NCBI RefSeq assembly: GCF_003334815.1
Contig: NZ_QOWO01000010.1
From: Escherichia coli
GTDB lineage: Bacteria > Pseudomonadota > Gammaproteobacteria > Enterobacterales > Enterobacteriaceae
Length of the DNA: 64,000 nucleotides
Direction: 5' to 3' (one strand)
Shown here: positions 25,760-26,845 of the stretch, in pieces
Position numbering within the stretch: the stretch's first letter is position 1
Layout: each line of letters begins with the position of its first letter
Position numbers and translations under genes: made by a program
Notes under the pieces: generated by a model
What the model was told of the DNA's origin: nothing
The model's input: the letters and a program-made list of their open reading frames with translations, nothing else
Databases searched by the model: none

Positions 25760-25775
25760 AGGCAAACGTTTACCT
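25760..25775. promoter_or_regulatory. PUR box (PurR operator) upstream of purR
   Basis: aggcaaacgtttacct resembles the ACGCAAACGTTTTC PurR operator; purR is known to be autoregulated. Confidence 0.6.
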
Positions 25776-25819
25776 TGCGATTTTGCAGGAGCTGAAGTTA
25801 GGGTCTGGAGTGAAATGGA

Positions 25820-26845
25820 ATGGCAACAATAAAAGATGTAGCGAAACGAGCAAACGTTTCCACTACAACTGTGTCACACGTGATCAACAAAACACGTTTC
25901 GTCGCTGAAGAAACGCGCAACGCCGTGTGGGCAGCGATTAAAGAATTACACTACTCCCCTAGCGCGGTGGCGCGTAGCCTGAAGGTTAACCACACCAAGT
26001 CTATCGGTTTGCTGGCGACCAGCAGCGAAGCGGCCTATTTTGCCGAGATCATTGAAGCAGTTGAAAAAAATTGCTTCCAGAAAGGTTACACCCTGATTCT
26101 GGGCAATGCGTGGAACAATCTTGAGAAACAGCGGGCTTATCTGTCGATGATGGCGCAAAAACGCGTCGATGGTCTGCTGGTGATGTGTTCTGAGTACCCA
26201 GAGCCGTTGCTGGCGATGCTGGAAGAGTATCGCCATATCCCAATGGTGGTCATGGACTGGGGTGAAGCAAAAGCTGACTTCACCGATGCGGTCATTGATA
26301 ACGCGTTCGAAGGCGGCTACATGGCCGGGCGTTATCTGATTGAACGCGGTCACCGCGAAATCGGCGTCATCCCCGGCCCGCTGGAACGTAACACCGGCGC
26401 AGGCCGCCTTGCCGGTTTTATGAAGGCGATGGAAGAAGCGATGATCAAGGTGCCGGAAAGCTGGATTGTGCAGGGTGACTTTGAACCTGAATCCGGTTAT
26501 CGCGCCATGCAGCAAATCCTGTCGCAGCCGCATCGCCCTACTGCCGTCTTCTGTGGTGGCGATATCATGGCAATGGGCGCACTTTGTGCTGCTGATGAAA
26601 TGGGCCTGCGCGTCCCGCAGGATGTTTCGCTGATCGGTTATGATAACGTGCGCAACGCGCGCTATTTTACGCCGGCGCTGACCACGATCCATCAGCCAAA
26701 AGATTCGCTGGGTGAAACAGCGTTCAACATGCTGTTGGATCGTATCGTCAACAAACGTGAAGAACCGCAGTCTATTGAAGTGCATCCGCGCTTGATTGAA
26801 CGCCGCTCCGTGGCTGACGGCCCGTTCCGCGACTATCGTCGTTAA
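25820..26845 (+). CDS. purR: purine repressor (LacI family)
   Basis: 341-aa [36 protein letters not shown]... recognised as PurR. Confidence 0.97.
25848..25863. promoter_or_regulatory. second PUR box, inside the purR coding region
   Basis: gagcaaacgtttccac within codons 10-15 of purR; consistent with the described second autoregulatory operator. Confidence 0.55.

Follow-up and report, generated by a model that had tools for sequence, protein, structure and literature searches.

Autoregulation of the Escherichia coli purR gene by its own product, the repressor PurR, is known to proceed through two operators, which are reportedly bound without cooperativity and with a six-fold difference in affinity, and its extent is said to be two- to threefold. 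The title of Rolfes & Zalkin 1990, as cited in Qian 2016 (PMC5110547), states that two control sites are required and places them “downstream of the promoter”, and RegulonDB likewise holds two PurR sites for purR (per PMC3505978). At purB and purR, according to Cho 2011 (PMC3159470), PurR binds within the reading frame and blocks elongation.

Two further systems come close to this arrangement. One is the PurR operator within purB (He & Zalkin 1992), a transcriptional roadblock. Like the intragenic site of purR, it is a PUR box in a coding region, far downstream of the promoter, and it represses by blocking elongation, as is reported for purR too. However, purB has a single intragenic site; in purR there is a site in the leader as well, and the intragenic one lies, unlike that of purB, in the codons for the DNA-binding domain of the regulator itself. 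The other system is lacO2, the auxiliary LacI operator inside lacZ, which is cited in the literature as a rare coding-region site of the LacI family; in both lacZ and purR, a weaker auxiliary operator stands in the coding sequence 3′ of a stronger primary one. Nevertheless, LacI is a tetramer that loops between operators, whereas PurR is a dimer whose regulatory domain proved insensitive to the spacing of operators (PMC3505978), and the spacing at purR drifts among species.

The window analysed here, that is, the whole stretch of 64 kb, is chromosomal DNA of the E. coli K-12 type: a 1.4-kb query around the two sites is 100% identical to MG1655, and the RefSeq features in that region are purR, punR and cydH. 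The product of the 341-aa reading frame matches the NCBIfam PurR equivalog NF007979 with 711 bits (cut-off 501), as well as the PurR chains of the PDB (1pnr, 1bdi and others), and the gene is purR. The original prediction had placed one PurR operator-like 16-mer upstream of the start codon and a second one within codons 10-15, and both coordinates proved exact when the letters and the list of open reading frames were read (Table 1). The first site, O1, ends 44 nt before the ATG. The second, O2, runs from position 2 of codon 10 (cGA) to position 2 of codon 15 (ACt); the residues across it, R-A-N-V-S-T, make up the turn in the helix-turn-helix of PurR itself. These sites are the purRo1 and purRo2 of Rolfes & Zalkin 1990, and their arrangement was already known; in locus, sequences and distance from the ATG they agree entirely with the described system (Rolfes & Zalkin 1990; PurR-purR sites of RegulonDB). 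The locus can serve as a clean positive control, where both operators were placed to the base from sequence alone.

Table 1. Features of the purR locus, in window coordinates
Feature	Position	Strand	Sequence	Remarks
Candidate purR promoter	25629..25656	+	TCCCCT, 16-nt spacer, CAAAAT	putative; conserved across the order
purR operator O1 (purRo1)	25760..25775	+	AGGCAAACGTTTACCT	PUR box in the untranslated region 5′ of the start codon; letters read directly
Shine-Dalgarno	25807..25810	+	GGAG	9 nt 5′ of the ATG; invariant in a 13-species Enterobacterales alignment
purR coding sequence	25820..26845	+		341 aa; ORF list and RefSeq annotation; gene regulated by both operators
purR operator O2 (purRo2)	25848..25863	+	GAGCAAACGTTTCCAC	inside the coding sequence; letters read directly

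Window coordinates are converted to those of U00096.2 by adding 1,710,048, and the positions found here correspond exactly to those given in Cho 2011 and Qian 2016. The purR motif of Cho 2011 (PMC3159470), AGGTAAACGTTTGCCT at U00096.2 1,735,808-823, is the reverse complement of O1. The ChIP-chip peak of the same study (1,735,528-1,736,095), present only with adenine, covers both O1 and O2, which are inseparable at the resolution of this technique. The sequence and position of O2 can be found in Tables 3 and 4 of Qian 2016 (PMC5110547; U00096.3 1,737,872-887), and nothing on the purR operators was found in PMC3266220, PMC2760140 or a 2026 preprint. The known two-operator autoregulation, which had been invoked from the start, is thus backed by the two sites in RegulonDB, by the motif and the adenine-dependent peak, and by the published title, and the comparative results that follow are additions to a described system. 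Binding, adenine dependence and autoregulation come from the literature, and the sequences, positions, scores, conservation and Gly12/Asn12 split were computed here. In our judgement it is very probable that both sequences function as PurR operators, purRo1 and purRo2, in the negative autoregulation of purR.

A position weight matrix for PurR was built from 27 ChIP-chip motifs that Cho et al. 2011 (PMC3159470) list in their Table 1, with purR's own site left out, and a PUR box was defined as an imperfect palindrome of 16 bp that has CpG at its centre and matches ACGCAAACGTTTTCNT / ACGNAAACGTTTGCNT. O1, which has 2 mismatches to the consensus ACGCAAACGTTTTCNT, is a PUR box by consensus and matrix alike. 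Its score of 21.5 bits ranks first among the 63,985 positions of the window and exceeds both the maximum of 60 simulated windows (21.1) and the median of the training sites (20.3), and O1 is far above chance on its sequence. O2 has a perfect core, GCAAACGTTT, and 4 flank mismatches to ACGCAAACGTTTTCNT (counted by hand), and it was not returned by a consensus search of the window allowing up to 3 mismatches. With the matrix it reaches 10.4 bits and rank 5, the weakest training site having 11.9. Scores at this level are expected at 7.0 positions window-wide and were observed at 5, which is the level of chance, and O2 alone is not above background with the ChIP-derived matrix. The probability of a site of this strength within 100 bp of a given point, in this case O1, is about 0.02. 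The claim that both sequences resemble the PurR operator therefore stands for O1 by the matrix alone, and for O2 with the help of other evidence. The scan did not leave both sites at background, since O1 came first; O2 passes through its context only. As its score does not exceed the background, the reality of O2 rests on its adjacency to O1, on the literature and on its conservation across species. The 10-nt core GCAAACGTTT occurs only twice in the 64 kb, at O1 and at O2; this count was rejected as a test of significance, as two matches were also found in 11 of 100 shuffles.

Conservation was followed in the purR loci of the 80 closest species among species-representative genomes (92-100% protein identity to E. 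coli PurR), nearly all of which bear the name of an Enterobacteriaceae genus (Escherichia, Citrobacter, Salmonella, Enterobacter, Klebsiella and others), a few being MAGs. O1 was found in all 80 of them, at -57 to -60 from the ATG and with 14-22 bits, conserved inside a poorly conserved flank, and the 16-mer at the position of O2, GMGCAAACGTTTCCAC, is kept in 77. We computed the third-position entropy of every purR codon in the same species. The third positions of codons 11-14 (GCA AAC GTT TCC) are invariant in 79-80 of the 80, and their summed entropy of 0.19 bits is the lowest of the 274 four-codon windows of purR. Averaged over the gene, a codon has about 1 bit, and no more than about 5% of the degenerate codons match these four in conservation; codons 3, 4 and 6-10 show free variation at the third position. 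Both O1 and O2 are conserved at the orthologous position beyond neutral or coding constraint. The original prediction had also held that an operator in the coding region constrains codon choice, and the measured entropies support it, codons 11-14 being the most synonymously conserved four-codon stretch of purR. Selection on the operator would have frozen these synonymous positions, because O2 is written in codons 10-15, and the constraint apparently reaches past codon choice to the replacement of Gly12 by Asn12. This locus offers a clear bacterial case of a coding stretch with a second, regulatory code, where synonymous freezing can be measured. Examples of this kind are relevant to the question of how strongly codon usage and protein evolution are distorted by transcription-factor sites inside genes.

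Two other explanations of the conserved stretch have to be weighed. According to one of them, O2 would be no working operator but a by-product of the conserved helix-turn-helix residues A-N-V-S-T, and O1 alone would matter. Such a reading agrees with the score of O2, which is at the window-wide chance level and below every training site, and with the invariance of the residues that O2 encodes, whereby the protein already fixes two of every three bases; it also agrees with an uncultured Asn12 lineage (L088) that keeps AAC and a strong O1 but has lost the right half of O2. However, in codons 11-14 it is the synonymous third positions that are frozen, while the flanking codons and the rest of purR vary. 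Moreover, species with Gly12 vary freely at the same four codons, and the title of Rolfes & Zalkin 1990 speaks of two required sites, all of which makes a mere by-product very improbable. The second explanation places the constraint at the level of the mRNA near the start (structure, translation initiation or codon ramp) instead of a DNA operator. Synonymous conservation is generally higher near starts, and the third positions of codons 2, 5, 16 and 19 are also near-invariant. Against this, the frozen codons fall precisely on the 12-nt operator core, where they spell the PurR consensus; codons 3, 4 and 6-10, which lie between the ATG and O2, vary freely, and codons 11-14 are unconstrained in Gly12 species in spite of an otherwise similar mRNA context at the start codon. 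We find a purely mRNA-level origin of the freezing hardly credible.

The predicted strength of O2 also differs among species through a synonymous change. Codon 10 (25847-25849) alternates between CGA and CGC among the 80 species: the CGA of E. coli results in the weaker variant GAGCAAACG... (10.4 bits), and CGC, which occurs in 44 of the 80, in GCGCAAACG..., the variant GCGCAAACGTTTCCAC (12.9 bits), so this synonymous site appears to tune the strength of O2. Further downstream, in window positions 25865-25876, the third positions of codon 16 (ACA, 79/80) and codon 19 (TCA, 80/80) are near-invariant outside the 16-bp operator. This conservation 3′ of O2 could reflect an extended contact, a GalR-related constraint or chance.

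A role for another repressor is in fact suggested by published binding data. In the ChIP-chip study of Qian 2016 (PMC5110547), both sequences are listed as bound by GalR at ynhF/purR, and purR was validated by ChIP-qPCR, so selection for O1 and O2 may not be due to PurR alone. The sites, chiefly O2, could then have been kept mainly as GalR/GalS operators that tie PurR levels to galactose status, possibly through a GalR-GalR loop. We scored the window with a GalR matrix made from 17 other GalR sites, the weakest of which has 16.8 bits. O2 (25849-25863) is the top match in the window (14.4 bits) and O1 the eighth (10.5 bits), but both fall under the weakest training site, and neither matches the GalR operator GTGNAANCGNTTNCAC at the level of known sites. 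Their make-up is mixed as well. Like the GalR operators of the OE/OI type, they are LacI-family 16-bp palindromes with a central CG; both were enriched in ChIP for GalR, and the right half of O2 reads GTGGAAAC on the reverse strand, a perfect half-site of the GalR type. On the other hand, the left halves, AGGCAAAC and GAGCAAAC, are of the PurR type and the scores lie below all bona fide GalR sites. Little or no GalR-dependent change in expression was reported in Qian 2016 (PMC5110547). The distance between O1 and O2 varies from 85 to 88 bp across the 80 species, and this 3-bp drift fits a phased loop poorly. It argues against helical phasing and looping in general, in agreement with the observation that operator spacing had no effect on a chimera with the PurR regulatory domain (PMC3505978). 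A selection of the sites mainly by GalR is thus unlikely, although a GalR role as an added layer is possible and compatible with the PurR operators.

The evolutionary origin of O2 can be approached through purR loci from outside the Enterobacteriaceae. Eight outgroups (Erwinia, Mixta, Providencia, Xenorhabdus, Hafnia, Pectobacterium, Serratia and Yersinia) represent the Erwiniaceae, Morganellaceae, Hafniaceae, Pectobacteriaceae and Yersiniaceae; the family placement was confirmed for Hafnia, Xenorhabdus, Pectobacterium, Mixta and Serratia, and is that of established taxonomy for Erwinia, Providencia and Yersinia. All eight encode A-G-V-S, not A-N-V-S, and in all eight O2 is absent, with PurR-matrix scores of -2.5 to -22 bits at its position. 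Their codons 11-14 vary freely (GCG/GCA/GCT/GCC, GGT/GGC/GGG, GTT/GTC/GTA/GTG and TCC/TCG/TCA/TCT). Among the 104 full-length PurR cluster representatives listed, with at least 79% identity, residue 12 is Asn in 11 and Gly in 93, and no other position among residues 1-60 shows a fixed difference; identity to E. coli PurR is about 89% or more in the Asn12 representatives and 85% or less in the Gly12 ones. In this frame the core GCAAACGTTT demands Asn-AAC at codon 12, and O2 therefore looks like an innovation of the Enterobacteriaceae coupled to the change from Gly12 to Asn12. A genome named “Erwinia sp. HR93”, filed under Erwiniaceae, has both Asn12 and O2; it was not counted as a counter-example, as its name is doubtful and its PurR is 90% identical to that of E. 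coli, versus 82-84% in other Erwinia.

The history of O1 seems to be a different one. A weaker site at its position, AGGCAAACGATTAACA, with about 12 bits, is located at about -60 in Erwinia, Hafnia, Pectobacterium and Yersinia, and Mixta has one of 17.6 bits, also at about -60; with the PurR matrix, no site was found at this position in Providencia or Serratia microhaemolytica. By this comparison of sequences, O1 is older than O2. A passage in a review citing Ravcheev 2002 gives purR autoregulation sites as absent in Vibrio and Pasteurellaceae. We propose, giving the idea an even chance of being right, that the operator drove Gly12 (GGY), a turn residue of the LacI family, to Asn12 (AAC), the only fixed change in the otherwise frozen DNA-binding domain of its own regulator, because GCA-AAC-GTT-T is the sole spelling of the operator core in this frame, and that O1 was strengthened concurrently, from about 12 to about 21 bits. 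The site may have driven the substitution or exploited an existing one. If the former is true, an amino-acid substitution would have been imposed by a DNA site rather than by protein function. An operator-driven coupling of this kind has no mention in the searchable literature, and the Gly12/Asn12 coupling is a small and apparently unreported addition.

The position of the promoter matters for how both operators could work. A 13-species alignment contains only one block conserved across the order 5′ of O1, CTCTTCCCCTTTT...AGATCGGACAAAATTCC (window 25625-25659, + strand), which lies between the divergent cydH (ynhF) and purR and includes a GATC (Dam) site. This block may serve as promoter of purR or of cydH, or as a control element that both share. 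It holds the candidate promoter of Table 1, whose first hexamer reads TTCACT in Yersinia-type sequences, and which suggests a weak promoter with a putative transcription start near 25663; counted from there, O1 would fall at about +97 and O2 at about +185. A scan of 25400-26000 with the sigma-70 consensus found no promoter, and the phrase “downstream of the promoter” therefore rests on the published title together with the candidate promoter; the scan of the same region gave one terminator-like match (25699-25713), a frequency expected by chance.

Under the published mechanism, which we consider the most likely, a PurR dimer bound to hypoxanthine or guanine would recognise each of the two 16-bp imperfect palindromes with their central CpG, O1 being the strong site and O2 the weak one. 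With both operators downstream of the promoter, an elongating polymerase would be impeded, not excluded from the promoter, so that occupied operators would probably hinder RNA polymerase after initiation, as a roadblock. O1 and O2 would act independently and without a DNA loop, and the expected outcome is a modest repression of PurR synthesis. The operator within the gene would in turn require Asn (AAC) at residue 12, where the PurR of other Enterobacterales has Gly.

Three minor observations concern the rest of the window and the purR leader. The second-best PurR-matrix score in the window (18.6 bits) belongs to AGTAAATCGTTTGCGT at 56870-56885 (+), between the divergent ORFs 53605..56661 (-) and 57050..58162 (+), which corresponds to the ydiJ/ydiK intergenic region. 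This site (U00096.2 1,766,918-933) falls within the ChIP-chip region “ydiJ/ydiK” of Cho 2011 (1,766,545-1,767,225; PMC3159470), for which Table 1 of that study gives no motif. In the leader, a small hairpin CGCAAC-ACTTTT-GTTGTG (window 25729-25746, + strand) ends 14 nt 5′ of O1, and 66 distinct Enterobacteriaceae sequences yield a predicted hairpin at this point, with stems of differing sequence (GCAAC/GTTGC, GCAAT/ATTGC, CAATC/GATTG, CCC/GGG and GCTGC/GCAGC). The changes in the stem look like covariation by eye but have weak statistical support (mean z -0.55), and RNAalifold on the purR leader did not call this hairpin 5′ of O1. Finally, a 60-nt block, GCGTACTGGCCATTGACCCCTTCCTGACGCTCCGTGTCGTTTTTCCGGCGTACCG (window 25676-25735, + strand), also 5′ of O1, is not alignable in other families of the Enterobacterales and is almost invariant in the 80 Enterobacteriaceae species, a degree of conservation that most of the purR coding sequence does not reach at synonymous sites.
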